Position numbers and translations under genes: made by a program. Under the pieces are notes generated by a model. That model had not been told where the DNA came from, ran no database searches, and saw only the letters and a list, made by a program, of their open reading frames with translations. This document shows positions 1 to 62,851 of a stretch of 64,000 nt of DNA, one piece after another (position 1 is the first letter of the stretch; each line of letters opens with the position of its first letter). This DNA is from a virus, in the IMG/VR virus record IMGVR_UViG_3300034110_001068, positions 7,014-71,013 of that record; one strand, written 5' to 3'.

Positions 1-1004
1 GGCCCAGCCTTCGCCAGCATCGGGTCAATGGCGGCAGTCACCGCTGCGCGCAGGGCTTGCATGTCATCGCTGACGGGCACTTCCTGACGGCTGACCGGCG
101 ACGTCGACTGTTGCGCCACCGAGGGTGTCGACGCCAGTTTCACCGGCGTGGTTGCCACGGGCATCGACGCCACCCACTGCGCGACTTTGACCAGCATCGT
201 GTCCTGCACCAGATCGGCCATCGCTTGCGCGGCGGCATTGGTGTCCTTGCCGGTGGTGATCTTCGGCGCATCGGCCTTGCGAATCGCTTCGAGTTGCTGC
301 GACACGTCGGCAATCACGCCTCGGTAGCCTTCCTTGGCGAACGCTTTCAGCTCCTTGATATCGCCGAGCAAACCCTTGAATTCCGCCGCCACTTCCTTGG
401 GCAACTCCTTCACGGCTTTGACCAGTTCGGTGATTTGCCGGTACTGCTCGATCAACGGTTTCAGCTGTTCCTTGATCACGTCATAGACGCCGGTAAGGCT
501 GTTGCGCAGGTTGGTGATACCGATCCGCGCTGCCTTGATCAGCGCCATCGCCTGCTCGAAACGCGCCACCGCCGAACCCAGCAGACCGTCAGCTTTGACC
601 AACAGCACTTTCTGCGTGCTGACCGTTGCCGTCGGAAACGGCAGCGGCTGATCGGGGTAGAACTTCAGGGTAAACGTCACCAGCCCGCCGTCCTGGCGGG
701 TATGGGTCATGTCGCATTCGCCGACCTTGACCTGCAGGCGACCGAGCCACGGATGCACGAGTTCGCCACGGCCCTGCTCCAGCGCCTGGAGCAGCTTGTC
801 GCGCTGCTTCAGGCAATCAGGGCCGATGATGAACGCGGTCAGATCGTGGGTCTTGGCCTGCTGGCCGAGGTCCTCGAAAAACGGCAGGTCGCGTCGCGGG
901 TATTCGTGCAACTGCCCTTTGCGCCCGACCGGTGTCTTCGCCTGGTCGATCCAGAAACCGACACCGCGAAAGGATGCCGGCAATAAACGGTCACGCCAGT
1001 TCAT
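1..1004 (-). CDS. Mu gp43/N-like DNA circularization (tail) protein, truncated by window edge
   Basis: Read manually: ATG at 1004 overlaps tape-measure stop (ATGA); MNWRDRLLPASFRGV..GELVHPWLGRLQV matches prophage homolog 26447-27703. Confidence 0.9.
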   Translation of the reverse strand, partial: MNWRDRLLPASFRGVGFWIDQAKTPVGRKGQLHEYPRRDLPFFEDLGQQAKTHDLTAFIIGPDCLKQRDKLLQALEQGRGELVHPWLGRLQVKVGECDMTHTRQDGGLVTFTLKFYPDQPLPFPTATVSTQKVLLVKADGLLGSAVARFEQAMALIKAARIGITNLRNSLTGVYDVIKEQLKPLIEQYRQITELVKAVKELPKEVAAEFKGLLGDIKELKAFAKEGYRGVIADVSQQLEAIRKADAPKITTGKDTNAAAQAMADLVQDTMLVKVAQWVASMPVATTPVKLASTPSVAQQSTSPVSRQEVPVSDDMQALRAAVTAAIDPMLAKAG

Positions 1005-2542
1005 TGGGTACCTCCCATCGACAGCGAGCGATAGCCGATGCGCGAAGACACGGCCAGGCCCGGTTGATTGGTTTGCGGTTGTTCGGTGCGCAGGCCGGCC
1101 GGTGCATTTTCGAAGCGCACGGTCAGGCCGCCTTCGAGTTGCGTGCGGTTGTTGGCGGCGCTTTGCTGGATGAGGCTGCTCGAAGTTTGCGTCAGAGAAG
1201 TCGAGGACTGTGTCAGCGCCACCATCGGCGCAGGACTTGTGGAAGCGGAATCCGCACTGGAGCCAAAGAATTCTGGCGCCCACTCCCCCTTGCCTTGGGC
1301 ATTGGTTCGTTCCTGCGCGTGGGTAAAGACATCGACCTTGGCCGACGCTTCGGCGGCGAGCTCACCCAGGCCCCCGTTGAAAAATGCCCGGACCGGGGCA
1401 AGCGCCTGGTAAAACTTTTCGCTCCACTTCTCGATCCAGACCGTGACCGAGCCCCAGGCCTGAATGATCAGTTCCAGAGGCGACCAGCCCAACTGCTCGC
1501 GGATCACCGCATACAGGGCGAGCACGGGGAGTTTGATGGAATCGACAAGATCGTGGAAAAAAGCGCCCACCGGTACCGACACCGCTCGGAGCAGATCCCA
1601 GATCGATGCAAAAAGCCCTACCAGAGGCGCCCAGTTCTTCAGAATCAGCGCCTGCGGGGAATACGCAAACAACGTTGCATAAAAGTCGATGACCGGCGCA
1701 GCCAGCGCCTTGAGCACGTTCCACAGCGCCGCAAAGAACGTGCTTACCGGTCCCCAATTGCTGATCAGCATGCCCATCGGAGTGAACCCGAACATCGTGC
1801 GAAAGAAACTGGCCATCGGCATGACGACCGGCGCAATGTCTTGCCACAGTCGAGCAAAAAAAGCCGAGACGGGTTTCCAGTTGGCGACGATCAACCCGGC
1901 CGCCAGCGCAACTGCGGCGGCAAATAGACCGACAGGCGAAGCGAGCAGCGTCAGCACGGCGCTGAAACCGGCAGCCGCTGTTGTCACGAACGTGAACGCC
2001 AGCGCTGCCGCCGCCAGCCCTTCCACCAGTTGCGGGTGATCGGCGACAAATTCACCGACCGAAGTCACCACCGGCACCAGCGCCGTTACCAGTCTATTGA
2101 CGGCGGGTAGCAAAGCCTGCCCGATCTTCAATGAAATGTTGTCGAGGGAGAGGTTGAACTTCGCCAGATTAGTCGAAGTTTCCCCCTTCACTACCGCCGG
2201 CACCTGTGCCGGGACGGGCTTGTTCAACGGTGCAGGAATCAGCGCGTCTTTGCCCAGGGTCGGCACGCTGAGCTTTTTGCTCTTGGTCGCCAGTTCGTCT
2301 TCGGCCTTGATCGCCTTCTTCAGTCCCTCCTGAAAAGGTTTCAGCAAGCCGCCACCGGAAAGGAAACCCGATAAATCGAAGGGCTTGATCGAACTGCTTT
2401 CCAGACTTTTCCTGAACGCCGCCACCTTGCCTCGGACGCCCTTCATTTCAGTGTCCATCTTCTGCAGACCCTGCATCACGACCAGCATGTTCACCGTGGT
2501 CTGCATGTTCTGCTGGAGCGCATTTATTTGTGTCTTCGCCAT
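1001..2542 (-). CDS. tailocin tape measure protein
   Basis: Ala/Leu-rich with periodic W/F; position between chaperone and gp43; C-terminal RFEN..PQTNQPGL shared with prophage tape measure. Confidence 0.85.
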   Translation of the reverse strand: MAKTQINALQQNMQTTVNMLVVMQGLQKMDTEMKGVRGKVAAFRKSLESSSIKPFDLSGFLSGGGLLKPFQEGLKKAIKAEDELATKSKKLSVPTLGKDALIPAPLNKPVPAQVPAVVKGETSTNLAKFNLSLDNISLKIGQALLPAVNRLVTALVPVVTSVGEFVADHPQLVEGLAAAALAFTFVTTAAAGFSAVLTLLASPVGLFAAAVALAAGLIVANWKPVSAFFARLWQDIAPVVMPMASFFRTMFGFTPMGMLISNWGPVSTFFAALWNVLKALAAPVIDFYATLFAYSPQALILKNWAPLVGLFASIWDLLRAVSVPVGAFFHDLVDSIKLPVLALYAVIREQLGWSPLELIIQAWGSVTVWIEKWSEKFYQALAPVRAFFNGGLGELAAEASAKVDVFTHAQERTNAQGKGEWAPEFFGSSADSASTSPAPMVALTQSSTSLTQTSSSLIQQSAANNRTQLEGGLTVRFENAPAGLRTEQPQTNQPGLAVSSRIGYRSLSMGGTQ

Positions 2543-2713
2543 CACTGCACCTGCTGCATCGCATTGATCCGTTGCGCGTGCTCCAGCGATTCGCGGAGCA
2601 CATCCAGTGGCCTGGCCATCATCTGTTCGGGGTCAACCTTCCAGAACCAGGCCAGGTCATAGGCGACGGCGATCAGGTCGGTGATGGCGCCGACGCCGCA
2701 CTCATGAAAAAAC
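2542..2713 (-). CDS. -1 frameshift extension of tail assembly chaperone (G-T / E-E' type)
   Basis: Slippery T TTT TTC at 2706-2712; -1 frame open to TGA at 2542 (FFHECGVGAITDLIAVAYDLAWFW...); same arrangement in prophage. Confidence 0.8.
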
Positions 2714-2969
2714 TTGCGACGGCCCAGCTCAGCGCATTGAGGTCGGCCAGATCCAGCTGGTTGACCGACGACGGCGGAATGCCGGCGCACACGGCGATGT
2801 ATTTGGCCGCCACGTCCATGTCGAGGCTGACTTCTTCGTTCTTGTCGATCTTGTACGGCAGCGCCTTGATCGCTCGCACTTCCTGCACCGTCGGACGGCG
2901 CAGTTCGAGTTCGGTCAGGGGCTCGCCGTGGGCTACGATTGCTACTTGAAGCTTCACGGCGCCGCTCAT
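2673..2969 (-). CDS. tail assembly chaperone (Mu gp41-like)
   Basis: LRRPTV..LDLAD motif; between tube and tape measure. Confidence 0.88.
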   Translation of the reverse strand: MSGAVKLQVAIVAHGEPLTELELRRPTVQEVRAIKALPYKIDKNEEVSLDMDVAAKYIAVCAGIPPSSVNQLDLADLNALSWAVASFFMSAASAPSPT

Positions 2970-3313
2970 TGCCAGGTCCCCTTGATGCCTTCGAATTTCA
3001 ATTCGATGGTGGCGTCATCGCCCTTGGAGACAGGCTCTTCGACCAGATAGGCGCCGGCCAGCACGTAGACTTTGCCGTTGCTGAATTCGCAGGTGACGGT
3101 GATGTCTGTGCCTTCGATCAACTTCTTCAGCGGGAAGTCGGCGGTGTGCAGCGCGGTCACTTTGAACGACGGCGCGATGTCGGTTTCCTTGTAGAAACCG
3201 GGCACGACGGTTTCACGTTTGACGGCCATCAGCGGGGCTTCGCAGCCGCCGTTGATCGTCAGTTGTGCGCCGTCGACCTTGACGTAGCAGGTGCCTGCAA
3301 TCAGTTGACCCAT
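2966..3313 (-). CDS. tail tube protein (Mu gpM-like)
   Basis: MGQLIAGTCYVKVDG; start reassigned to ATG 3313 (SD AGGGAG); 115 aa like prophage tube. Confidence 0.9.
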   Translation of the reverse strand: MGQLIAGTCYVKVDGAQLTINGGCEAPLMAVKRETVVPGFYKETDIAPSFKVTALHTADFPLKKLIEGTDITVTCEFSNGKVYVLAGAYLVEEPVSKGDDATIELKFEGIKGTWQ

Positions 3314-3332
3314 GGTGTTACTCCCTTGAATG

Positions 3333-3355
3333 AAAAAGCCCACACGCGGTGGGCT
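3333..3355 (-). terminator. intrinsic terminator-like hairpin between sheath and tube
   Basis: AGCCCAC/GTGGGCT stem plus T5 on minus strand; equivalent hairpin at 30564-30586. Confidence 0.6.
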
Positions 3356-3380
3356 GAATGCTTGACGGTAAACGCGGATA

Positions 3381-4877
3381 TCAAGCCGCGTCGTCGTACT
3401 GCAGACGGAACTGGTTGAGCAGTGCGAACACACGCAGACCGTTGATGTAATCCGGCGGGAACAGCACGTTCACGCGGCTCGGGTCTTGCACGTCGCGCTC
3501 GACGATCAGGTGCTCGGCGAACAGCTCGGCGTTCTCCACGTGGCCTTCGAGTTCGAGCTTGGCATACTGGGCAATCAGCTCACCGCGAATGGTCGCCGGT
3601 GTAACGATCGGCTGGCCGGCGCCGAAACGGGTGCCGTCGGAGGCCAGTTTGTGCCGTCCGTATTTGCTGGTGATCACGCTTTGCAGACGGCGCACGATGA
3701 ATGCCGACTGGTGCATGGTTTCGCTGTCCAGATAAGAGTTGTCGGCCTGGCCGTAAGCGTTCTTCTGGTAGGTGGTGATCGAACGCTGAATGCGCACGTA
3801 ACCGCCCTCGTAGTAGGCGGTGGCGATCCCGTAGTTGAGCAGCGACTGACGCTCGGTCAGGGTAAAGCGTTCGCTCGCCGGTGCAGGGTCGACACCCGGC
3901 AGGCTGCCACTTTGCGTCGGACGGCTGGCATCGGCGGAGATGAACACAGCCGTGCGCGCAGCCAGCGCGGCGGCCTGCACCCAGAACGGTTGCGGTACGC
4001 CCGGCTCCAGCGCCTGAATGGTCATGTGCTGATCGTTGCGCGCCTGGCCTGCGGCGACCAGGGTGCCGACAGTGCCGCGTTTGGCGCTGTAGACGTGACC
4101 GAACAATTGCTTGGCCCACGACCAGCGCCCGTTGCTGTCATCCATGACCGCTTGCCAGGTGTTGAGGGTGGCCAGATCGGACCACGGCAAGGCGATGAAT
4201 TCGAATGGCTCATCGCCTAGCGCCGCAACGGCAGCGATCTGATCAGGCACGCCAGCGCCGCCGATCATCGCGCTGATCGCAGTGGTCAGGCCAGCCGGGG
4301 TTTCTTCACCGTTGCTCTTGCCCAAACGATTGAATTGCAGGCTGATATCGTTGCCGCTGTCGCCGGTCCATTTGGCGTTCAAGGTGACAATACCTTCGGC
4401 AGCCGCCGCGCTGACAGGCAAATCGGCGCTGGCGTTGATTTTCTGCGCCAGTGCGGTGGCAGCTTGTGCTGCGGTTGCGCCGTTGACCACGGTGGCCTGC
4501 ACCCGCACACCGCCAATATAAAGGTTGAGCATGCCCGCCTGTGTCGCGGTGCCGGTCAGAGTCAGCACGCCCTTGGCAATGGCGCCTTCGGTGTTGTGCA
4601 ATGGCAGGCACCAGATCTCGCCGATCGGGTCAGCCTTGCGGAAGGTCTCGTACATCGAAGCGAGCATCGAACCCTGGCCACCGATGTTCTTCGCCAGCGC
4701 CACGCTGGAAACCAGCACCAGTTTACCGACTTCAGTCGGGGCGATATTGTCGTTGACCTGAGCGACGATCAAACGGCGCATGGCCGAGGTCGCGCTATTG
4801 GCAGCCGAGTTGTCCATTTCGGCATAAAACAGCGGCACACGAATGTCCGCCGGGATGTTGCTGAATCCGATTGCCAT
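3381..4877 (-). CDS. contractile tail sheath (Mu gpL-like)
   Basis: 498 aa, IPADIRVPLFYAEMD..RSITTYQKNAYG..SYLDSET. Confidence 0.95.
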   Translation of the reverse strand: MAIGFSNIPADIRVPLFYAEMDNSAANSATSAMRRLIVAQVNDNIAPTEVGKLVLVSSVALAKNIGGQGSMLASMYETFRKADPIGEIWCLPLHNTEGAIAKGVLTLTGTATQAGMLNLYIGGVRVQATVVNGATAAQAATALAQKINASADLPVSAAAAEGIVTLNAKWTGDSGNDISLQFNRLGKSNGEETPAGLTTAISAMIGGAGVPDQIAAVAALGDEPFEFIALPWSDLATLNTWQAVMDDSNGRWSWAKQLFGHVYSAKRGTVGTLVAAGQARNDQHMTIQALEPGVPQPFWVQAAALAARTAVFISADASRPTQSGSLPGVDPAPASERFTLTERQSLLNYGIATAYYEGGYVRIQRSITTYQKNAYGQADNSYLDSETMHQSAFIVRRLQSVITSKYGRHKLASDGTRFGAGQPIVTPATIRGELIAQYAKLELEGHVENAELFAEHLIVERDVQDPSRVNVLFPPDYINGLRVFALLNQFRLQYDDAA

Positions 4878-5059
4878 TATTTGGCTCCCTGTGGTTTAGC
4901 CGCTTTTGCGGCCTTGAGTGTGATGTCGCCATCGGCCAGACGCCGGCGCCACCAGGCGCTGTCCGGCACGTCACGGCCTGCAGCCGGCAGCAGGTCGCCC
5001 GACTCCGGGTCAGGTACAACACGGCCGGCGGCCGGCACTACGGTGATGCGGTTGCTCAT
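4877..5059 (-). CDS. DUF2635 / Mu gp38-like small tail protein
   Basis: VPDP..WWRRRLADGD motif; ATG 5059 overlaps upstream stop. Confidence 0.85.
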   Translation of the reverse strand: MSNRITVVPAAGRVVPDPESGDLLPAAGRDVPDSAWWRRRLADGDITLKAAKAAKPQGAK

Positions 5060-5640
5060 GGGGTTACGTCTCCAGAGAAAGTCATTTCCACCCGTCCATC
5101 CGGACCCGGGTGTTGCAGGTTGGGGTCGGCCGGATCGATCGCATCGACCCGCACCGTCATCCCGGTAAAGGACGACAAAGCATCCAGTTCGCGCTCGTGC
5201 CAACTCTCCGCAGGCTGCCCTGGCAAATTGCGGCCGAGCTGGAATTGGGCGTAGAACCGCAGCCGATAGAGCACGCGGCTGCTGCTGATCGACACCAGTT
5301 CACCGCCGTCATAAACGATGGCGCTGTAGTTGGAATCGGGCTTGAACCCCACCAGCGCACGCCACAGTTCAGCGCGCAGGTCGTGCAACAGATCCAGCGC
5401 TTTTGTCGCGTCGGCTGCGTCAAGCACGAGGACGATTTCGAAACGGTCGCGGATCGGTTGGGTGGTGAGGTTTTGGCCGCTGCCAGGACTGGCCAGATCG
5501 GCCAGCGGCAATACGTGAGCCGAGGGCGTCGGTAGATCGGAGTTGCCTTGCAGCAACGCCAGATCGACACCCACCGAAACATGATTGGCAAGCCCAGGGC
5601 ATTGCCCACGCAACTGCGTGAGGATCGGGGTGATCTTCAT
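5056..5640 (-). CDS. tail terminator/completion protein (Mu gp37-like)
   Basis: Synteny; homologous to 32303-32893 (LLHDLRAELWRALVG, IDPADPNL..PGPDGR). Confidence 0.8.
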   Translation of the reverse strand: MKITPILTQLRGQCPGLANHVSVGVDLALLQGNSDLPTPSAHVLPLADLASPGSGQNLTTQPIRDRFEIVLVLDAADATKALDLLHDLRAELWRALVGFKPDSNYSAIVYDGGELVSISSSRVLYRLRFYAQFQLGRNLPGQPAESWHERELDALSSFTGMTVRVDAIDPADPNLQHPGPDGRVEMTFSGDVTP

Positions 5641-5800
5641 GGGGGGTGTTCCAGAGTTGGAGGGTATTGACGAAAACTCCGCACCCACTTTGGGTTTTGT
5701 GCGGGGTTCAGGCGTTTGGGGCGCGGCGCGTCGAGTTGGTCAGGCAGCGATCGCTGTTTTCAAAAAATAAATGCCGCTTGGCAGTGGGCAACTCAATATC

Positions 5801-5832
5801 AAACAAAACAGCCCCGAAGTGACTCGGGGCTG
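5801..5832 (-). terminator. intrinsic terminator after llpA
   Basis: CAGCCCCGA/TCGGGGCTG stem followed by TTTTGTTT on minus strand. Confidence 0.7.
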
Positions 5833-5845
5833 ACATCAGAAATAC

Positions 5846-6691
5846 TTAAAACGACCAGATTGGACGCTCGATAAACGGCGTCCATGGTCCGTTATCCCAC
5901 TGGTAAACCCGCTTCGGCAAAATGGTGGGGGTAAAACCGAATCGGGCCCACACCGGTTTCTCGCTGACAATCGAAAAACTGCCGTTAGCCTGTACCTTGG
6001 CCATGGCGCCCGGTTTGCCAGCAGTGCCGGTAAACCACAGTGGCGTATTGTTCGCGTCATAAATAACGAAGTTGCCGTCCTCCTGCATAACTGCACGGGT
6101 GGCACCTTTGTTCTGAGTCCAGCTCGCCCACAGGACACCAAGCGGGCCATTCGAAACCACCAGGTTGCCGTCGGACTGGAAGACTAGAGTCGTTCCCCCC
6201 ACGACATACCGTCGGTCAACTTCGAGCGTGGTACCGGCGGGAATATAGACAGATTCCACCACCGGACTGATCGGGATGGCAGAGTTGCTCGCCCACACCG
6301 GAACGGAGTCAACTACGACGAGGTTGCCGTCATTCTGCAACTGCAGATAGGTGCGAACATAAGCGCCCCAAATGTCATTGTTCAGTGGCGTACTGTTGGC
6401 AGTGCCCCACATCCGTCCGTGAGTCGGATCGTTGAGAAACGCGTAATACATCAGATAGAAATAAATCTTTGATTTATCAATCTGCTTACCCCCGGAGGTA
6501 TACGGTTGACCGGCCGTAGCTACCCAGACAGGAGTGGCACCATCGTAGATCACCAGGTTGCCATCGGCCTGAACATCCAGCTTGAAGCGCTTGTCCGGCG
6601 ATTGAAGATATTGTCCGGCGGACATCTCATGCAGCGGTAGCAAAACCGAACTGCCATTTTCAGTAAACGGATAACGAGGTAGCGATGCCAT
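5846..6691 (-). CDS. llpA: lectin-like bacteriocin (LlpA / putidacin L1 family)
   Basis: 281 aa, two GNA/B-lectin domains with QxDxNxV motifs (QADGNLVIY, QNDGNLVV, QSDGNLVV, QEDGNFVIY) and an aromatic C-terminal extension. Confidence 0.9.
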   Translation of the reverse strand: MASLPRYPFTENGSSVLLPLHEMSAGQYLQSPDKRFKLDVQADGNLVIYDGATPVWVATAGQPYTSGGKQIDKSKIYFYLMYYAFLNDPTHGRMWGTANSTPLNNDIWGAYVRTYLQLQNDGNLVVVDSVPVWASNSAIPISPVVESVYIPAGTTLEVDRRYVVGGTTLVFQSDGNLVVSNGPLGVLWASWTQNKGATRAVMQEDGNFVIYDANNTPLWFTGTAGKPGAMAKVQANGSFSIVSEKPVWARFGFTPTILPKRVYQWDNGPWTPFIERPIWSF

Positions 6692-6716
6692 AGAACTTCA
6701 CCTATTGCTTGATAAG

Positions 6717-6887
6717 TTATTGTTTGCAGTCTGAAGCTGTCAGTTCGCTCACAGGCGGGGTGCCAGGACGTTCAGCCTTGGCATAGTTCAATGTCCTGCA
6801 TCGAGGACATTTGATTTGTACTTGGAATACTGCGTTTACTCGGGCGAGCAAACGGTTGCATTGGCCGCAGCGAAATTCGCTCAACAT
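6717..6887 (-). CDS. Mu Com-family zinc-finger regulator (56 aa, below ORF-track cutoff)
   Basis: Manual translation MLSEFRCGQCNRLLARVNAVFQVQIKCPRCRTLNYAKAERPGTPPVSELTASDCKQ; CxxC..KCPRC signature; SD GGAGGT. Confidence 0.85.
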   Translation of the reverse strand: MLSEFRCGQCNRLLARVNAVFQVQIKCPRCRTLNYAKAERPGTPPVSELTASDCKQ

Positions 6888-6924
6888 GCAATGACCTCCC
6901 TTTCAGATGTGTCGTAATTGCGTA

Positions 6925-7269
6925 TTACTCCTTGTTGGTATTGCCTGACGGTACTTCGCAGACGCCAATGCGCTTGGCCGCCCAGCGTTCGTAAAGGCCA
7001 ATGGCGACATCAGCGCCGGCCATCGCCGTCAGACAGCCAAAGGCTCCAGCCGCCCAGATCGACATGCCGGCCGCATACAGCAGCATGATCGCCGACACTC
7101 CGCAGATCATGCAGGCGCCTGAGCGCAGGGCCAGACGCCGTACCAGTGACCAGCCGCGGGCGCCTTCCTTGTCGGCGCGCCACATTTCGCCAGACACCCC
7201 GCCGACGACGGCCAGGAGGATGACCAGCCAGATCGGCATGTCCGCCAACGCTTGTTGCTCGTTTGTCAT
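6925..7269 (-). CDS. tailocin holin
   Basis: MTNEQQALADMPIW, three hydrophobic segments, SD GGAGG, first gene of operon. Confidence 0.88.
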   Translation of the reverse strand: MTNEQQALADMPIWLVILLAVVGGVSGEMWRADKEGARGWSLVRRLALRSGACMICGVSAIMLLYAAGMSIWAAGAFGCLTAMAGADVAIGLYERWAAKRIGVCEVPSGNTNKE

Positions 7270-7339
7270 GTCACGCCTCCGTGGGTGATTGATGAGTGAT
7301 GGGGTGGATTCAAACGGTTTCGCTTGAGGCAGGCATTCC

Positions 7340-7370
7340 AAAAAGCCCGGCGCTCGCACGCCGGGCCTTT
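7340..7370 (-). terminator. intrinsic terminator inside tailocin leader, upstream of holin
   Basis: GCCCGGCG/CGCCGGGC stem plus TTTTT on minus strand. Confidence 0.75.
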
Positions 7371-7427
7371 GAGTAATGCGCTCCTTCGCCTTCCTTCAAA
7401 TCCTGTGTTCGAGAAGGAAGCTGACTT

Positions 7428-7576
7428 TTCGGCGCTGCTGGCGCGGTACGAGTCCATTCAGATTGTTTTTCCGACCGCGGTCCCTGCCCGCCGGATAACT
7501 GGTTCTGGTGCTTTACGCTGCACACCCGGGTCAGTTGCCAACCCTCTGAACCGTTGAGGCCGGTTCATCGCTGCCT
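7428..7576 (-). ncRNA. conserved structured leader RNA, copy 1 (candidate cis-acting antiterminator)
   Basis: Aligns end to end with 50481-50628 (about 85% by hand) with compensatory stem changes; no credible ORF. Confidence 0.7.
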
Positions 7577-7635
7577 GTTCTTGTGGAACCAAAGAGCTTG
7601 TCTTGCCAGCCGCTTTGTCGAGCGGCTTGGTGGCA

Positions 7636-7708
7636 AGAATATGCATGGATGCATACACAGTCAATGCATAAGTGCATTTATTTATGCATTAAATTTGCGT
7701 ACGTGCAT
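7636..7708 (-). promoter_or_regulatory. tailocin promoter with candidate PrtR operators
   Basis: TTGACT(7664-7659)-17-TATTCT(7641-7636); ATGC-N6-GCAT palindromes at 7641-7654 and 7664-7677, variant at 7695-7708. Confidence 0.65.
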
Positions 7709-7750
7709 GAGAGCCAAGCGGGGCAAGGGTTGGGGAGGTTTCTATAGACG

Positions 7751-7777
7751 AAAAAAAACCTGCCGAGCGGCAGGTTT
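7751..7777 (-). terminator. terminator after prtR-like gene
   Basis: AACCTGCC/GGCAGGTT stem plus T-run. Confidence 0.8.
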
Positions 7778-7795
7778 CTGTTGGATCGAAAGGGG

Positions 7796-8530
7796 TCAGC
7801 GTGCGTACATTCCCCACCAGAAGACATGACCGAGAATGACGATCTGCTCTTCCTGAATTTCCTGGAAGCTGTAGTCCTCATCCGGATGCTCGTCGCGATT
7901 GAAGCTGCGCAGACGAATGCCGGTGGGCAGGCGATAGAGTTGCTTCACGCGCAACTGGCCGTTGTGATTGATCGCATAAAGGTCGCCATCAATGATGTCG
8001 CCAATCCCGCATTTGCCGGCGTTTACGCCGACAGTGGCGCCATCACGCAGAACCGGCAACATGCTGTTGCCACGGACTGTCACGCATTTGGCCTGGTCGA
8101 ATTGCACACCGTTGTGACGCAGGCTGCGCTTGCCGAAACGCAGGCTAGAGCGCTCGCTCTCCTCGATGACGAATCTTCCTGATCCAGCAGCCAATTCAAC
8201 CTCACGTAGAAAGGGCACCGACACCTCGTCATCATCGACTGGCGTGTCGTCATCCCACAGGCTTATGTCCTTGAGTTCGGCATGCACATCTGCGCGCGTG
8301 CCGACGGCCGCTGGCGCGACATCCGCACGCCCGCGCAACTGATCGGTGCTGACGTTGAAATACTCGGCGATCTTCGAGATGTGCTTATCCGAAGGATCGA
8401 CAATTTTCCCGCTGAGAATCCGCGAGAGCGTGGATTGAGGCACGCCGGTGCGACGGTGGAGCTCCGTGGGGGAGATCCCGTGCTGATCGAGCAGTGCTCT
8501 TAAGACGGAGGATACGTTGCGTTTTTGCAT
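7796..8530 (-). CDS. prtR: PrtR-like repressor (XRE HTH + S24 autopeptidase)
   Basis: HTH (QSTLSRILSG), AG cleavage site (LAAGSG), GNSM and VKQL catalytic motifs; start 8530 or 8539. Confidence 0.88.
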   Translation of the reverse strand: MQKRNVSSVLRALLDQHGISPTELHRRTGVPQSTLSRILSGKIVDPSDKHISKIAEYFNVSTDQLRGRADVAPAAVGTRADVHAELKDISLWDDDTPVDDDEVSVPFLREVELAAGSGRFVIEESERSSLRFGKRSLRHNGVQFDQAKCVTVRGNSMLPVLRDGATVGVNAGKCGIGDIIDGDLYAINHNGQLRVKQLYRLPTGIRLRSFNRDEHPDEDYSFQEIQEEQIVILGHVFWWGMYAR

Positions 8531-8566
8531 AACGCGCATAGTGCTTGAAGTTTTTTGCAAAGACAA

Positions 8567-8580
8567 ATGCTGATTTGCAT
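8567..8580. promoter_or_regulatory. candidate PrtR autoregulatory operator
   Basis: ATGC-TGATTT-GCAT upstream of prtR, same consensus as boxes at 7641 and 7664. Confidence 0.5.
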
Positions 8581-8799
8581 ATTTCATATAAACTGCATTC
8601 TCATACCGACTGCAGCTCGCTTCAGGCATCGAAGCATCGGATACGATAAAACCACCACAAACCCTGGTCAGCGCTATCAGGGAATGTACGGTATGCAAAG
8701 TAATCTCTGCATACCGAACGCCCCTTTGAAACCACAAACACCTTCATTCGTGCATTTGCTATCGCTGGGCACGCAAGAAGTTCATTGCCCCCAACACGG

Positions 8800-10797
8800 C
8801 TATTTTGCCCTCGGTTTCAGGCGTTCAAGAGCGTTTACCGCATCTTGACTGCCGTTTAGCGCAGCCTTCTGATACCAGACGCTGGCTTCGACCTTGTTTT
8901 CAACAACCCCGATCCCGGTATCATAGGCCCGCGCCAGCCAATACTGAGCTTCAGCGTTATCGGTAGCAGCTGCTTTCATATACCAGTTCACTCCTTCGCC
9001 AGGATTCTTGGCGACACCTTGCCCTTCACTGTACATTCGCCCCAGAACAAGTTGAGCCGAAACATCACCATCGACGGCCCGCCTCAATATATTTCCGATA
9101 CTTTCAGGCATGTACTTGGTGCCCATCAGAACAATCGAGGGCTGAGATTGATTGCTACTCTGGTATGCGACATCGACAGGTTGCTCAAAGACAATCCGAA
9201 TTCGCTTGAAGGATTCAATATATTGACCCGATAACTGGGTAAACAAAAGCAGCCCCCCAGTACTTGGAAGAACCCGGCGAGCGTGCAGCTCATGCACTTG
9301 CCCCTGCATATCCTCCACCAGTGCTCGGCCACGTATGTCACTATCGGAATCGGAGGCAGGCTTAATAAACAAAGCGATCGACACCAGGTTTCGGCTCTGA
9401 ACAGACGCAGATATCGGCACCTCCAAGAGGTAACCCTCATCGCTCTTTTTAATTTGTTTTAATACGTAATTTTGCTCTGCCAAAGGCGTTAACCGCTCAC
9501 AGTTTCTCCCGTACAGCCATGGAAAAGGATCAATAGGAACGCACAAGGGCGTGACACCTTGGTCAATAGCTCCCGAAAACTCCTTCCAATAGGAGTTTCC
9601 AAGACCCGGAGCAACCCACTGACGACTGATCTTGGTACCATAGGAAGCCCAGCCAGTGCCAATAAACCAAAGAGAGAAAATCACCAGGGCGGCCAGGCGC
9701 CCGAAGCGAAACCTGGCAGCAGCCGACGCCAAAATGGCTGCACAGGCAGCGACAACAAATACAAACCCAATGTAAGCAGTCAGTATATATCTGGAAATTC
9801 TGAAATCTGTCACTACTGGCTGAAAGGAATCGGTCCAGACGAGACTAAACGCCAAACAATTTAAAAGCGCCGTGAACGCTACCAAGCCGACCCCAACCAA
9901 CAATAGAGGACGGGCATTAATTACCTTTGCAAATGCCAATCCGAGGATGGCCAACACCAGGGAACCGACCACTGCAAATGTGCCAAAACCAGCCTGAAAG
10001 TCAGGACCCAGTAAAAAACGTCCAAACAAGGTCACCGTATAAACGAGTGCCAGGTAGCCTTTGTAGAACAAAGAACTATCACTGTGTTGCAGCGGCGTCC
10101 ACCCGGTATTCGCACTTACGACCATCCGTGCGACCTGCACCAGGCAAAACAGTACAGAAACGACAGCAATTGCCCTTATACGTCCCGGCCTCAAGAGTGC
10201 TGCGAAGACCAATACTGGGAGAATCGTCATTACCGCTGGTTTCGAGACGAATAGAAAGGGTACTAACCAGGCCCATAGCGGTAGGTCATTTTTTCGATCG
10301 CTCAATGCAAGAGCGATTACAGCGCCAATGAAGAAAACCGAAAAATAAGTAAAATTGATAAACGTACGGCTTTCAAAGTCAGCAACCATCAAGACAGCTA
10401 TAACAACCAGCAATCGTAACCCGTCGCTTTCGATAACAGCTCGAAACCGCTCGATCAAAAAAGAGCAGATTAACAGAGAGATAAGTGCAACAGACATCCA
10501 GCTATAGTAATACGGCACGGAGACTGCCGGAATTGAAAACAACGCACCTATATAAGCGACAATACGTTGCGGTAAAGGTACGTACCCCGCGTCCACAGCG
10601 AAAAAATTCTGATAAAGCGATGGAGCGTTCGCATTATCAAAATAATTAGGCCCCATTTCCGCCCACATTGCACCACCCAACAACCAACCAGGTTGCAGGG
10701 CCAGTAAATAGACCACATGAAATAAAACTGCTGCCCAAAATAATATAGCGCCTCTCCCGAGGAAGTTATTTCTATTTGGGGATTCTACGGATTGCAT
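8800..10797 (-). CDS. polytopic GT-C-like (GtrC-type) membrane glycosyltransferase fused to C-terminal Sel1 repeats
   Basis: Many TM segments, N-terminal WAEMG..GY..RI loop reminiscent of GtrV/GtrX, C-terminal AQxxLGxMYxxGxGV Sel1 motifs. Confidence 0.6.
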   Translation of the reverse strand: MQSVESPNRNNFLGRGAILFWAAVLFHVVYLLALQPGWLLGGAMWAEMGPNYFDNANAPSLYQNFFAVDAGYVPLPQRIVAYIGALFSIPAVSVPYYYSWMSVALISLLICSFLIERFRAVIESDGLRLLVVIAVLMVADFESRTFINFTYFSVFFIGAVIALALSDRKNDLPLWAWLVPFLFVSKPAVMTILPVLVFAALLRPGRIRAIAVVSVLFCLVQVARMVVSANTGWTPLQHSDSSLFYKGYLALVYTVTLFGRFLLGPDFQAGFGTFAVVGSLVLAILGLAFAKVINARPLLLVGVGLVAFTALLNCLAFSLVWTDSFQPVVTDFRISRYILTAYIGFVFVVAACAAILASAAARFRFGRLAALVIFSLWFIGTGWASYGTKISRQWVAPGLGNSYWKEFSGAIDQGVTPLCVPIDPFPWLYGRNCERLTPLAEQNYVLKQIKKSDEGYLLEVPISASVQSRNLVSIALFIKPASDSDSDIRGRALVEDMQGQVHELHARRVLPSTGGLLLFTQLSGQYIESFKRIRIVFEQPVDVAYQSSNQSQPSIVLMGTKYMPESIGNILRRAVDGDVSAQLVLGRMYSEGQGVAKNPGEGVNWYMKAAATDNAEAQYWLARAYDTGIGVVENKVEASVWYQKAALNGSQDAVNALERLKPRAK

Positions 10798-43251: not shown

Positions 43252-44532
43252 TTAAACCTCGCCTATGGTTGTTTCTTTAATGGCCTTGCAGGCCTTATGG
43301 TCTGTGGCTTGCAGCGAATTACCAGAATCTTCAAATCTAAAGTCGGTCAATCCATGAATCGCTGCAAAGCCTTTCTGATCTAGATGTGCGTGCCACTGTT
43401 GAAGGGCATCCCGCTTGCGGCTCATTACGTCCGACTGGATGTAAACCTTCACGTTGTGCCCCATTGCGTGGTTGATTAGAAGCTCGCCAATGAGGTGGTC
43501 GATGCCGAGATCTGCCCAGCCCGTGCGCGCCACCTTGCGCAAGTCGTGACTGGTCCACTCGCCCTTTCCCAACCGACGGAACACGGCGCAGCCTTGTGCC
43601 TCGCCCAGCGCCTTGCCATTGCGCGCAGGGAACATGCATTGGCCGTCATAGCCTCGGGCGTACTGACTTTCTCGGTACCGGGTCAGCAGCGTGCAAACCT
43701 GCTCGGTCAGGGGCAGGTGATGCTCGACGCTGGTTTTCGTGTTCTCGGCCGGGATGAACCATTCGCGTTCAGCTAAGCTAATGTGAGACCAGCGCGCCAT
43801 CCGGGTTTCACCGATCCGCGTGCCATGGCAGAGCATCATCAGTGCGAGCATCGAATCCAGCGGCGCGGTGCTCATGACTTCGGCCAGTTGCCCGAGCAGG
43901 CCTTCCAACTGAACGCCGCGCAGACGGGACGGCTTGATGCCGACTTTTGCCTTAGAGAAGTCGTTGAACCGGATCGCTGCCATCGGGTTGGACGTGATCA
44001 TCCCCAGCTTGGCCGCCTGCCGGAATGCCAAGGCCAGCAACTGGAATGCCGAACGCACGTAGTCGATGGAAACCGTTTCCTGCAGCGGCCACATCAGCAG
44101 GGTATCGAGAGCGGCCTTGTCGATGCCGATCAGGGGCAGCTCGCCAAGGCGCGGTTTCAGGTGGCACTTGATGATCGATGCGCCAGTGTTCTTGCGCTTG
44201 GTCGAGAGATTGCGATCGCGTGACATGCGATCAGCGAACCAGTCCAGCAGCTCACCCACGGTGTTCCACTTCGACAGGTTTGCGCCTTCGCCAGCGGCCA
44301 GACGAAGTCGAATCGACGGAAGCGCCGAGACCACCTGCTTGTGTGTCAGCTCGGGGAAGGTACCGATCTGGTTCCACTCGCCCTTCAACACCAGGTACCA
44401 AGATCCACCGGTGCGAGCCTTGTTGAAGCGCAGGTACAGGCCTTTGTTTTCGAGGTCGCGCACGTCCTGTACGGTGCCGGCCACTTGGCGCTTGATCTCA
44501 GCTTCGGTGATCTTCACTGCGGCGGTTGTCAT
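43252..44532 (-). CDS. second tyrosine recombinase (in nin-like region)
   Basis: GTRIGE, HDLRK, INH, VY catalytic set; N-terminal arm-binding-like domain (GLYLR..SWY). Confidence 0.88.
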   Translation of the reverse strand: MTTAAVKITEAEIKRQVAGTVQDVRDLENKGLYLRFNKARTGGSWYLVLKGEWNQIGTFPELTHKQVVSALPSIRLRLAAGEGANLSKWNTVGELLDWFADRMSRDRNLSTKRKNTGASIIKCHLKPRLGELPLIGIDKAALDTLLMWPLQETVSIDYVRSAFQLLALAFRQAAKLGMITSNPMAAIRFNDFSKAKVGIKPSRLRGVQLEGLLGQLAEVMSTAPLDSMLALMMLCHGTRIGETRMARWSHISLAEREWFIPAENTKTSVEHHLPLTEQVCTLLTRYRESQYARGYDGQCMFPARNGKALGEAQGCAVFRRLGKGEWTSHDLRKVARTGWADLGIDHLIGELLINHAMGHNVKVYIQSDVMSRKRDALQQWHAHLDQKGFAAIHGLTDFRFEDSGNSLQATDHKACKAIKETTIGEV

Positions 44533-48964: not shown

Positions 48965-49033
48965 AAATTTAGCTTAGGGCTAACATTGGAGCAAGGAATA
49001 TTTAGCTGTGAGCACATTTAGCATTGAGCTAAA
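48965..49033. promoter_or_regulatory. OR operators and PR promoter
   Basis: TTTAGC-N5-GCTAAA-like 17-mers at 48968, 49001, 49017; minus-strand TTGCTC-17-TAAATT. Confidence 0.75.
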
Positions 49034-49052
49034 CGCTGTCATCCTTGGCCGC

Positions 49053-49904
49053 ATGGATATTTATGCGATTCGCAAACACCAATTGATCACGCTGATTGGC
49101 GACCAAAGAAAAGGCGCCTGCGCAGAGCGCTGGGGGATGGCGCCTGCGCACTTAAGTCAGATCCTGTCGGATAAAACCGCTAAGAACCTTGGGGATGACG
49201 TTGCTCGGCGCATCGAGTCGATCGAGAAACTTCCGCGTGGCTGGTTTGACTCAATACCTAATGATGGTGGCGTGATCGCCAAGGGCACGGAATCCGAAGG
49301 CGAAGCAGCGGAGATGGCTGCGAAGGCAGCTTCCGCCGCGGACCAGGTTAAGCGGATGCTCGCCAAGGTGAAGGGGCTATCGATTGAGGCCAGGGACCGT
49401 ATCGTCGCAGCTGCAGAAGAGCCGGACGATGGACCTGAGCACGTCATTTCGAGCAACCTGTCCCGGCTTCGCCCTACAAGCGAAGAAATTTTGATCCCTC
49501 AATACGATGTCCGTGCTGCTATGGGACATGGTCAGGTTCCCCCGGAATACAACGAGGCCGTTCGCAATCTCGTTGTTAGGGAGGAGATCCTTCGAGAAAA
49601 GGGAGTGACGTATACCGCCGCAAACGCTTTGGCGATGATTACGGGGTGGGGGCAGTCGATGGAAGGAACCATCAACGACAAAGACCTTGTCATCGTCGAT
49701 CGGGGCGTCAACGAGTTTGTTGGTGAGGGCATATATTTGATGACTTGGCACCAAGAGCTCTATATAAAGCGAGTCATGCGGTTAGATGAAGAGCATTACA
49801 GATTGATCTCTGACAATCAGCACTACGAAAACCAGACCGCAAGGATCGACGACGTCAACATTCATGCGAAGGTGCTGTTGATCTGGAACGCGCGAAAAGC
49901 GTGA
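49053..49904 (+). CDS. CI repressor (HTH + S24 peptidase)
   Basis: AAMGHG cleavage region, GQSME and YIKR catalytic motifs. Confidence 0.92.
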   Translation: MDIYAIRKHQLITLIGDQRKGACAERWGMAPAHLSQILSDKTAKNLGDDVARRIESIEKLPRGWFDSIPNDGGVIAKGTESEGEAAEMAAKAASAADQVKRMLAKVKGLSIEARDRIVAAAEEPDDGPEHVISSNLSRLRPTSEEILIPQYDVRAAMGHGQVPPEYNEAVRNLVVREEILREKGVTYTAANALAMITGWGQSMEGTINDKDLVIVDRGVNEFVGEGIYLMTWHQELYIKRVMRLDEEHYRLISDNQHYENQTARIDDVNIHAKVLLIWNARKA

Positions 49905-49947: not shown

Positions 49948-50265
49948 TTAAAAAGGTGCTATTTCCTCCAATGGCTCGAGCTCGTCATTCATTTCTACCT
50001 GCGCATCGTTATCTGAGGCTGCCTCCCACCGCAACGTGACCGATTCGGGGTCGTCGTTGAAAACGATATCGATGCCGTCGACCTCGGCGAGCACATTCAT
50101 CACCTCATCCCACTCCCTATCCCCGTCCGTGTCCAACCGATGGATAGTCACCGTCCGGTTCAACTGCGCGATCGGGTGATTGATCATGCTCGAGACCCGC
50201 AAATTCAGGCGCTCTATTCCAGACATAGGGGTACGTTCTTGTTTCTGCTTTTGTGGGCGCGCCAT
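49948..50265 (-). CDS. DUF1654-like protein, SOS-regulated
   Basis: ERLNLRVSSMINHPIAQ..W..V; LexA box upstream. Confidence 0.75.
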   Translation of the reverse strand: MARPQKQKQERTPMSGIERLNLRVSSMINHPIAQLNRTVTIHRLDTDGDREWDEVMNVLAEVDGIDIVFNDDPESVTLRWEAASDNDAQVEMNDELEPLEEIAPF

Positions 50266-50383: not shown

Positions 50384-50447
50384 TTTCACTCGAAGCTAAA
50401 TTATTTAGCTGTGAGCTATTGACGCATCTTTAGCTAGAAGCTAAATT
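50384..50447 (+). promoter_or_regulatory. OL operators and PL promoter
   Basis: 17-mers at 50384, 50404, 50429 (TTTAGCTAGAAGCTAAA); TTGACG(50419-50424)-17-TAAATT(50442-50447). Confidence 0.8.
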
Positions 50448-50480
50448 AATTTCAACGCCGGATAACCACCGGCCTCAGCA

Positions 50481-50628
50481 AGGCAGCGATGAATCGGCCT
50501 AAACGATTCAGAGGGATGGCAACTGTCCCAGGGTGCGCAGCGTAAAGCCCCAAATCAGTTATCCGGCGGACGGTGTCGCGGCCGGAAGAAAAATTTGAAT
50601 GAGCCCGTACCGCGCCAGCAGCGCCGAA
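50481..50628 (+). ncRNA. conserved structured leader RNA, copy 2 (PL leader)
   Basis: Homologous to 7428-7576; begins about 30 nt after predicted PL start. Confidence 0.7.
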
Positions 50629-50701
50629 GGGACACGGAATTTTTCACTGATGCACCTGGTTGGCCGGGTGCATTGGGAAAACAACCGACAGGTGATCGAC
50701 C

Positions 50702-51230: not shown

Positions 51231-51257
51231 AAAGCCCGGGGCGACTCGGGCTTTTTT
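51231..51257 (+). terminator. tL-like intrinsic terminator
   Basis: AGCCCGGG/CTCGGGCT + T-run. Confidence 0.8.
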
Positions 51258-62520: not shown

Positions 62521-62550
62521 GCTTTTGCAGCTATCACTTTTCTGCAGGCG

Positions 62551-62678
62551 AAAAAAGGGGCGGTATGACCCGCCCACATTTTTTCCCTATTCCCTGTGAT
62601 CCTTTTCATCGTCCTGATGAATCGCTTCCTGCGATGTCCATTCCCCTCCTCCGTGAAGGGCGTGTCTGTCCGTCGACA
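62551..62678 (-). ncRNA. rsmZ: RsmZ (PrrB) small RNA
   Basis: Multiple GGA motifs, terminal GGGCGG..CCGCCCC-T6 hairpin, conserved rpoS-fdxA position. Confidence 0.93.
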
Positions 62679-62851
62679 CACTTGAGATATTAGCGGTTTT
62701 GCGCTGAGGAGCAATTGGCCCTCGGTGCGCTTGCGACCTGTCATAAAGGCATAACAATGAAAAAATACGATTAAAAATCAGAAGCTTAGCGGTTGTAGCA
62801 GATGGCGATCGCCGTCTACCGAAGTGTAAAAATAACGAACACTTACGGCAC

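Follow-up and report, generated by a model that had tools for sequence, protein, structure and literature searches.

How is a long tailocin operon switched on by DNA damage when its cluster holds a repressor, PrtR, and no known activator? Tailocins made by plant-associated and environmental Pseudomonas attract study both as precision antimicrobials and because they drive kin competition, and a study of P. protegens CHA0 describes the tailocin clusters of environmental Pseudomonas, that of CHA0 included, as having PrtR and lacking PrtN (PMC12066065). The question bears on a 64 000-nucleotide stretch of viral DNA (positions 7014 to 71 013 of IMG/VR record IMGVR_UViG_3300034110_001068), referred to here as the window, which carries two copies of an element of about 150 nucleotides (nt). 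Copy A lies in the leader of a tailocin operon, between prtR and hol, and copy B in the leader of a PL-type operon of a lambdoid prophage. The element is a conserved leader module of SOS-repressor-controlled early operons of Pseudomonas, and its RNA provides a concrete and testable object for the question of damage-inducible control.

A nutL-like position, an rrn-type boxA, terminators downstream, the lack of an adjacent regulator gene and published CHA0 reporter data lead us to read the element as a cis-acting processive antitermination leader that would work with host (Nus) factors only, a reading to which we give about an even chance. Antitermination is an inference from this context, as are the participation of Nus factors and an RNA that stays bound to polymerase.

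Two copies of one element in the window

An earlier note on this DNA, made from the letters alone, had claimed that the reverse complement of 7428–7576 (copy A) resembles 50481–50628 (copy B) from end to end at about 85%, between unrelated flanks. BLAST against the 71-kb record bore this out, with 85% identity over query positions 10–158 (E 4e-42), and returned copies A and B as its sole two copies of the element; in a MAFFT alignment the similarity drops abruptly on both sides. A covariance model of the core, R1, matched copy A with 134 bits at 7577–7469 (−) and copy B with 114 bits at 50480–50587 (+), the next-best match in the window reaching 10.7 bits (E 0.48). The four blocks that the note had called invariant are identical between the copies in the alignment. 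Two of its three compensatory stem changes (GAACCG/CGGTTC versus GAATCG/CGATTC, and GGGTT..GACCC versus GGGAT..GTCCC) are as described, while the third, GTCGGA versus GCCGGA, is present but one-sided, a G-U pair becoming G-C.

Covariation supports a pseudoknotted core

From 101 unique copies RNAalifold derived a structure of 28 pairs, of which 10 show compensatory changes, and hand refinement of this prediction gave helices P1 to P4, with two bulged conserved G residues in P4, and a pseudoknot. In copy A the core spans 109 nt (7469–7577, (−)) and comprises P1 (7567–7561/7553–7547), P2 (7544–7541/7531–7528), P3 (7526–7522/7511–7507) and P4 (7495–7487/7480–7470), all on the minus strand, with the pseudoknot joining the P2 loop AACUG (7536–7532) to CAGUU after P3 (7501–7497). 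Across 77 unique cores the cells pair in 99.6% of cases, and both sides change in 15 of the 30 pairs; none of 500 shuffles reached any of these measures, and controls in which the partners were slid by 1–3 columns paired in only 21.7–48.1% of cells. A second set of 57 sequences, which included five divergent genome copies scoring 43–78 bits with R1, gave 99.2% pairing and both-side changes in 21 of 30 pairs, again matched by none of 500 shuffles. In this set four of the five pseudoknot pairs change on both sides, with AACUG:CAGUU replaced by CACUA:UAGUG, AACGG:CCGUU or CUCC(A):(U)GGAG; the pseudoknot was absent from the model that built the alignment. Covariation thus supports four helices and an H-type pseudoknot.

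G-U pairs are frequent in the core and would be A-C on the opposite strand, so the folded strand is the sense RNA of the operon. The claim in the earlier note that the element is a structured RNA therefore stands, on strong covariation, a pseudoknot and strand-specific G-U pairs. The single-stranded blocks AGGCAGCGAUGA and GCAGCGUAAAGC, both of which contain GCAGCG, are nearly invariant, divergent copies included.

Downstream of the core lies a further hairpin, P5 (7423–7454 (−) in copy A; 50604–50631 (+) in copy B), whose pentaloop is CAGCA in both copies. In copy A it consists of an outer stem, GACU/AGUC, and an inner stem, GCGC/GCGC, separated by an asymmetric internal loop, CGUACC/CGAAA, which we take to resemble a loop-E or sarcin-ricin motif. 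A CAGNN-loop P5 hairpin is found in 165 of 222 unique elements, with CAGUA in 111, CAGUC in 41 and CAGCA in nine. Among the 138 copies that belong to the common type, 129 have every base of the outer stem paired, and the stem occurs in at least six complementary versions. The leader RNA also begins with a hairpin in all types of the family alignment: GCCGCU-CGACAA-AGCGGC at 7609–7626 (−) in leader A and GCCGG-AUAACCA-CCGGC at 50457–50473 (+) in leader B.

Two further pairings were considered and rejected. A long-range helix between GCCGGAUAAC in the 5′ hairpin of copy B and GUUAUCCGGC after P3 is, by eye, uncompensated in relatives, which read GCCGGAUCAC and GCCGGUCAGC; pairing of the P5 loop CAGUA with a conserved UACUG before the leader terminator is likewise uncompensated in copies with CAGUC or CAGCA loops.

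The element is widespread in Pseudomonas

A two-motif pattern, whose counts are lower bounds, located the element in at least 120 IMG/VR viral stretches and in at least 120 stretches of species-representative genomes. Among the 120 genome loci listed, 116 are titled Pseudomonas. The other four are titled Gordonia (L170), Janthinobacterium (L179), a Gallionella metagenome-assembled genome (L211) and a Bacteroidia metagenome-assembled genome (L216), and probably represent contamination or mis-binning; the Gordonia and Janthinobacterium copies score 134–135 bits with R1, like Pseudomonas copies. R1 matched 89 of 151 sampled genomes from the genus of P. migulae, with one to three copies per genome (a tally that includes two matches in the unpublished genome G102), 10 of 151 in a sample of the family and two of 151 in a sample of the order, both of which had already been found in the genus sample.

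Eleven phage records gave BLASTN matches to the element. The copy in the P. fluorescens Q8r1-96 tailocin region (DVM-2008) separates prtR from the genes downstream, that in PseuP_224 is 3′ of cI, and those in Orimi01/Orisa and Medea1/Aurca01 are next to immunity genes. Among the matches listed by BLASTN and the genome scan, all close relatives of the element come from Pseudomonas. An RsmZ/PrrB small RNA gene (62550–62680, (−); 129.6 bits, full length) lies in the window beyond the PL-side genes of the prophage, and this gene and the Pseudomonas origin of the close relatives of the element identify the host as Pseudomonas.

The earlier note had not recognized the element as a named family, and a search of the whole window against Rfam 15 at gathering thresholds agreed, reporting only RsmZ and nothing over either copy. 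With E up to 10, both leaders gave only sub-threshold noise, none of it near gathering, such as miRNA-like matches on operator palindromes and rsmX at 18.2 bits. No Rfam family was reported on the immunity region of phage HK022 either, so this silence says nothing about likeness to the put RNA of that phage. Full-text literature searches found no description of the element RNA. Large membership and covarying helices show that this is a genuine RNA family; it is widespread and, as far as the sources searched go, undescribed.

Promoters, boxA and gene context

The earlier note had placed each copy in a repressor-controlled early-operon leader, some 30–55 nt after a sigma-70 promoter and upstream of intrinsic terminators, and the promoter, gene and terminator scans agree. 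Upstream of copy A and on the same strand is a PrtR-like repressor gene (helix-turn-helix and S24 peptidase domains; 7796–8737, (−)) with its own terminator (7779–7754, (−)). The sole promoter-like site in positions 1–8900 follows it, a sigma-70-like promoter at 7636–7664 (−) (TTGACT, 17 bases, TATTCT) surrounded by ATGCAT-type inverted repeats, which are presumably PrtR operators and from which repressor control of the promoter is predicted. The first gene of the tailocin operon encodes a holin (6925–7269, (−); PF16085, E 2.1e-55), and the operon continues with genes for a lectin-type bacteriocin, a tail terminator protein and the sheath. Copy B follows a cI-like repressor gene (S24 peptidase; 49008–49904, (+)) on its own strand, a DUF1654 gene on the opposite strand, and a sigma-70-like promoter, the sole promoter-like site of the scanned region (50419–50447, (+); TTGACG, 17 bases, TAAATT), flanked by AGCTAAAT repeats; small genes with no assigned function come after it. 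From the end of the −10 hexamer to the element there are 59 bases in leader A and 32 in leader B.

This arrangement recurs across the family. A homologue of the window's S24 repressors ends on the same strand less than 1.5 kb upstream in 150 of the 189 loci with enough upstream sequence, at a median of 222 nt, and 159 of 207 loci have a PF16085 holin homologue whose start lies less than 2.5 kb downstream, at a median of 278 nt from the start of the element, which leaves no room for a regulator gene. With a repressor upstream and a holin downstream, most copies are prtR-hol leaders of tailocin clusters, and the remaining copies are leaders of PL-type prophage operons. The divergent copies (43–78 bits) likewise follow cI-like genes.

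Between the 5′ hairpin and the core, copy A carries a boxA-like motif with one mismatch, GCTCTTTG (7590–7597, (−)), which reads GCTCTTTA in most relatives. When the 200 nt before the core are scanned, 77 of 114 unique contexts show the pattern GCTCTT[TC][AG], at −20 to −55; none of the 114 has it within the 700 nt downstream. Among tailocin-type contexts 81 of 112 have it, as do 32 of 38 holin-far and 27 of 56 other (prophage-type) ones. In one genome that bears the element, the rrn leader of the host has CGCTCTTTAACAA as its boxA. Of the six copies of the 12-mer GCTCTTTAACAA in genome G001, two were examined; each precedes 16S rRNA by about 150 nt, and the leader there reads CCGCTCTTTAACAA. 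The element boxA shares CGCTCTTTA with the core of the host rrn boxA, and the eight-base boxA core is described as the recognition sequence of NusB/NusE (PMC3177189).

Terminators and transcripts

The terminators named in the earlier note were recovered in all cases. The tailocin leader ends in T1 (7340–7370, (−)), which has an A-tract, a GC-rich stem and a run of five U residues (−32.4 kcal/mol, z −4.26). Further terminators lie within the operon: T2 after the lectin-type bacteriocin gene (5809–5832, (−); 10-bp stem, z −4.08) and T3 after the sheath gene (3337–3355, (−); z −3.24). Copy B is followed by a long, non-canonical hairpin of 13 bp with no U-tract (50641–50681, (+); −27.2 kcal/mol, z −4.0), and the first canonical terminator of the PL-type operon is at 51231–51257 (+), about 750 nt after the copy. 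Counting as terminator-like any hairpin of −9 kcal/mol or below that ends within 3 nt of a U-tract, we found one separating core from holin in 106 of the 112 tailocin-type contexts, with the U-tract at a median of +192 (interquartile range 188–195), and in 37 of 38 holin-far contexts; a stricter scan returned 46 of 114 contexts. Because no promoter-like site was seen in the roughly 70 nt from T1 to the holin ATG, transcription of the operon has to pass T1, and after it T2 and T3.

Expression was judged from assembled RNA contigs only, in which uncovered parts prove nothing. Two runs of one study gave separate leader contigs, 7620–7363 (depth 14.4) and 7620–7390 (depth 16.4), alongside holin contigs of depth 3.1 and 4.1; in a third run a single 6.3-kb contig of depth 260 covers everything. 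Both leader contigs begin at 7620, 16 nt past the last base of the −10 hexamer (7636) and near the expected transcript start. Together the runs hint weakly at a discrete leader RNA that stops at T1 and at another state with read-through. The metatranscriptome contig X5 comes from a relative at 90–95% likeness.

The invariant ACCCGGGU at the junction of P2 and P3 (7528–7524 region) and the 5′ arm of T1 (7366–7359), which for most tailocin leaders reads GCCYGGG, are complementary.

Activator genes and published reporter data

A domain search for PF11112, the PrtN family, was negative over the whole 71-kb record and positive in 67 of the 151 genus genomes, and none of the 10 open reading frames (ORFs) downstream of copy B on the PL side is annotated as an antiterminator in PHROGs; the earlier note, too, had recognized no prtN, N or Q gene beside the element. 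The 10 PR-side ORFs gave no antiterminator or Q-like annotation. PrtN was considered as an alternative activator, and the presence of PF11112 is unrelated to that of the element across the 151 genomes: 41 have both, 48 the element only, 26 PF11112 only and 36 neither (odds ratio 1.18, p 0.62, on the assumption that both tallies drew the same 151 genomes). Thus 48 of the 89 element-bearing genomes have no PF11112 at all, and since there is no association, genome-wide presence of PF11112 is uninformative. In four genomes (G057, G090, G146 and G005) a PF11112 gene lies about 36–40 kb from the element on the same contig and may belong to a neighbouring prophage or to the far end of the tailocin region.

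Relevant reporter data exist for CHA0. A plasmid reporter that carried just the prtR1-hol intergenic region (516 bp) was reportedly induced by about 3 log with mitomycin C; induction persisted without the whole tailocin cluster and also without prtR1, expression was unaffected when both CHA0 prophages were deleted, and its authors take other mechanisms to be at work (PMC12066065). Nowhere does their text use the words terminator, untranslated, secondary structure or transcription start. The reported deletions indicate that a gene inserted behind the prtR1-hol region can be reached without any factor that the tailocin cluster or a prophage encodes. The equivalent intergenic region of the window is 526 bp, and the comparison assumes that CHA0 carries the element.

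How the leader may act

Under the antitermination reading, a repressor-controlled sigma-70 promoter would produce an RNA consisting of the 5′ hairpin, usually boxA, the 109-nt core and P5 with its CAGYN pentaloop, followed in tailocin leaders by T1, whose U-tract lies about 190 nt from the core start. This nascent RNA would act in cis on the polymerase that made it, and boxA, where present, would recruit host NusB/S10. The elongation complex would turn termination-resistant and pass T1, T2 and T3, so that the whole lysis and tail operon of more than 20 kb could be expressed. The leader RNA would then stand in for the missing PrtN, N or Q, with no need for a protein encoded by the element. The terminator about 750 nt after copy B fits such action at a distance better than a local switch.

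Several observations weigh against this reading. With filters off, R1 found nothing better than 9.1 bits (E 0.72) in the whole HK022 genome and nothing in its immunity region or near PL or PR, so the element has no homology to the sole proven RNA-only phage antiterminator. In the window's prophage, R1 finds the element on the PL side and none on the PR side, unlike the situation in HK022. Single-sequence folding energies of the two copies are ordinary (z −0.37 and −0.51), which makes the structural support comparative only. Copy B, whose promoter abuts the 5′ hairpin, has no boxA, and boxA is missing in 37 of the 114 unique contexts. A terminator-like site within 700 nt occurs in only 25 of 56 prophage-type contexts. 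The leader-sized RNA contigs give a weak hint that many transcripts stop at T1 and that read-through is not constitutive, although carry-over of DNA is possible. Finally, the reported mitomycin response of the CHA0 reporter without PrtR1 points to a conditional step that a simple put-like element would not explain (PMC12066065).

This last point invites a more elaborate version, which we consider doubtful but worth stating: the leader could be a pseudoknotted sensor that, with host Nus factors at boxA, makes polymerase terminator-resistant only after DNA damage. If so, a signal-gated leader would supply the PrtR-independent, mitomycin-responsive control left unexplained in P. protegens and would replace PrtN-, N- or Q-type proteins across Pseudomonas tailocins and lambdoid prophages. 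It would also represent the first case of RNA-based processive antitermination beyond the lambdoid phages of enterobacteria, and a signal-gated one.

Equally doubtful in our estimate, yet a serious competitor, is a conditional attenuator, riboswitch-like or factor-dependent, in which the core senses and T1 decides locally rather than processively; this would add a second, PrtR-independent DNA-damage checkpoint before the lysis genes. T1 does keep a fixed distance in tailocin-type and holin-far contexts (106/112 and 37/38), and a core with invariant unpaired stretches and a pseudoknot is what aptamers have. An attenuator would also suit the two runs in which the leader contig ends at T1 and is deeper than the holin contig, with the third run as one 6.3-kb contig, and the reported induction of the CHA0 reporter by about 3 log without PrtR1, for which the authors invoke other mechanisms (PMC12066065). 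When six leaders were folded truncated before the 3′ arm of T1, the 5′ arm was fully paired with upstream leader sequence in all six, but the same pairing appeared in 17–38 of 100 shuffled leaders. No covarying antiterminator helix was found, the CCCGGG of the core being invariant and so beyond the reach of covariation, and P5 and a variable linker stand between the core and T1. Moreover, 31 of 56 prophage-type contexts keep the core with no nearby terminator, the first canonical one after copy B being about 750 nt away, and the gene context suggests no ligand or factor.

A nut-like site for a protein antiterminator encoded elsewhere, by the host or as an unrecognized phage protein, with P5 in the role of boxB, strikes us as slightly less probable again. 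The order of boxA followed by a hairpin with a conserved pentaloop would suit it (protein binding to P5 being putative), as would the three occurrences of GCAGCG in the element and the ORF for a Com-like zinc finger just after T1 in some tailocin loci. Against it, the holin is the next recognized gene in 159 of 207 loci, the 10 PL-side and 10 PR-side ORFs have no antiterminator annotation, and an arginine-rich ORF that overlaps P5 of copy B is unconserved, its ATG being present in only 58 of 223 unique elements. The CHA0 reporter was reportedly unchanged without the tailocin cluster and without both prophages (PMC12066065).

It is improbable that the leader is chiefly a stable small RNA, released as a promoter-to-T1 product of about 290 nt to act in trans, or a 5′ stabilizer of the mRNA, the operon being expressed by leaky termination. 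Promoter and terminator do form a discrete unit, RNA contigs of about 231–258 nt in two runs of one study fit it, and 5′ hairpins occur in all types. Against this, the lack of a promoter-like site between T1 and the holin ATG means that the operon is read through T1, T1 is often missing in prophage-type copies, and the complexity and invariance of the core exceed what a stabilizer needs. Nor did any complementarity to a target come to light, though none was looked for.

Two further sources of the conservation, a small protein-coding gene and a site in the DNA itself (operators or an attachment site, for example), are essentially excluded. Although an ORF of 37 aa in copy A begins at an invariant ATG and GenBank places coding sequences over the element (a hypothetical protein in PseuP_224, ‘Com’ in DVM-2008), the ORF from the invariant ATG is only four codons long in 62 of 210 unique elements, and its length elsewhere is anything from 5 to 130 codons or more. 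Only 58 of 223 elements have the linker ATG, and the ORFs that start there cross the terminator and vary in length and sequence. In addition, indels of 1–2 nt fall within the core, and the helix substitutions are compensatory, G-U pairs among them. Since ORF lengths and the linker ATG vary, the GenBank coding sequences are most likely over-annotations, and the conserved peptide raised in the earlier note as another cause of the conservation was not found among the ORFs of the element, which vary in length and presence.

Comparison with known systems

If the leader is an antiterminator, HK022 put is the obvious comparison, and the earlier note had called the element put-like or extended nut-like. 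Both are nascent leader RNAs located just after a repressor-controlled early phage promoter and upstream of terminators, with no N-type protein; put acts in cis on RNA polymerase, by way of the beta′ zinc-binding domain and with no phage protein, whereas for the element a cis action on polymerase is only proposed. The likeness goes no further, since neither the sequence (R1 against HK022) nor the architecture fits. As described, put measures about 70 nt, its two long stem-loops are arranged as a V, and stem I contains a triplex (PMC9378689); the element has a core of 109 nt with four helices, a pseudoknot and the extra P5. HK022 has put at both PL and PR, whereas the window’s prophage has the element at PL only, and put needs no boxA, whereas most copies of the element carry one.

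Lambda nut resembles the element in lying after cI and PL and before the first terminators, and in combining boxA with structured RNA and a pentaloop hairpin. Lambda, however, has an N gene, whose product binds the short boxB hairpin through its Arg-rich motif and works with Nus factors, whereas loci with the element have no N-like gene and in most of them the holin comes next; about 130 nt of pseudoknotted RNA separates boxA from P5, and the CAGYN pentaloop is, we believe, unlike the loops of lambda boxB. The rrn leader, in which boxB, boxA and boxC work with NusB/E, NusA, NusG and SuhB, shares with the element a hairpin followed by boxA, an identical boxA core and independence of phage proteins, but it stands upstream of rRNA, where the element does not, and the leader that we read has no counterpart of the pseudoknotted core.

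The EAR (eps-associated RNA) of Bacillus and the antitermination RNAs of conjugative elements are cis-acting structured RNAs, located within long operons or ahead of them, that promote read-through of distant terminators. Their hosts are unrelated to Pseudomonas, no Rfam family matched over the element at E up to 10, and read-through by the element is a proposed function only. The R/F pyocins of P. aeruginosa share with the loci described here a LexA-like PrtR upstream of a holin-first tailocin operon; they use PrtN, whereas the record of the window has no PrtN and the RNA leader would fill that regulatory gap. The element belongs to neither put nor nut and is a new RNA family in a known regulatory niche; that it works like them is plausible but unproven.

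An antitermination function would widen RNA control of elongating polymerase beyond HK022, tie the induction of phages and tailocins to the host Nus machinery and yield a compact, portable part for long-operon expression. Were the leader instead a sensor or attenuator, it would be a new class of regulatory RNA guarding a lethal lysis programme.

Other features of the loci

An ORF encoding a zinc finger like that of Mu Com follows T1 in the Q8r1-96 tailocin locus (DVM-2008; L003 2025–2333) and in about 10 other tailocin loci. In DVM-2008 the Com coding sequence as annotated begins at an ATG inside the element and crosses the terminator; its real start is probably the internal MLKDFRCG. Mu Com is an RNA-binding translational activator, and a link between the Com-like ORF and the leader RNA is conceivable.

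In the tailocin operon, the B_lectin (LlpA-like) bacteriocin gene (5846–6691, (−)) sits between the holin and tail genes with T2 directly after it, and looks like a cargo insertion that the polymerase of the operon must read through. Directly upstream of the PrtR-like gene, on the same strand, is a 665-aa ORF with Sel1 repeats (8800–10797, (−)).

The PR-side operon of the prophage contains a 426-aa integrase-family ORF (phrog_1; 43252–44532, (−)) between RusA/NinG-like and lysis/packaging genes, where a Q-type late regulator would be expected; the paper on PseuP_224 mentions an integrase gene in the same kind of cluster. The DUF1654 gene between cI and the PL-type promoter (49948–50265, (−)) has a parallel in a distant relative (L257), where a DUF1654 gene (3758–4147, (−)) lies just upstream of the element on the same strand, which suggests that DUF1654 is a recurrent moron at this spot. 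In another locus (L256), a Fic-domain gene (4177–5553, (−)) is inserted between the cI-like repressor gene and a divergent copy of the element.

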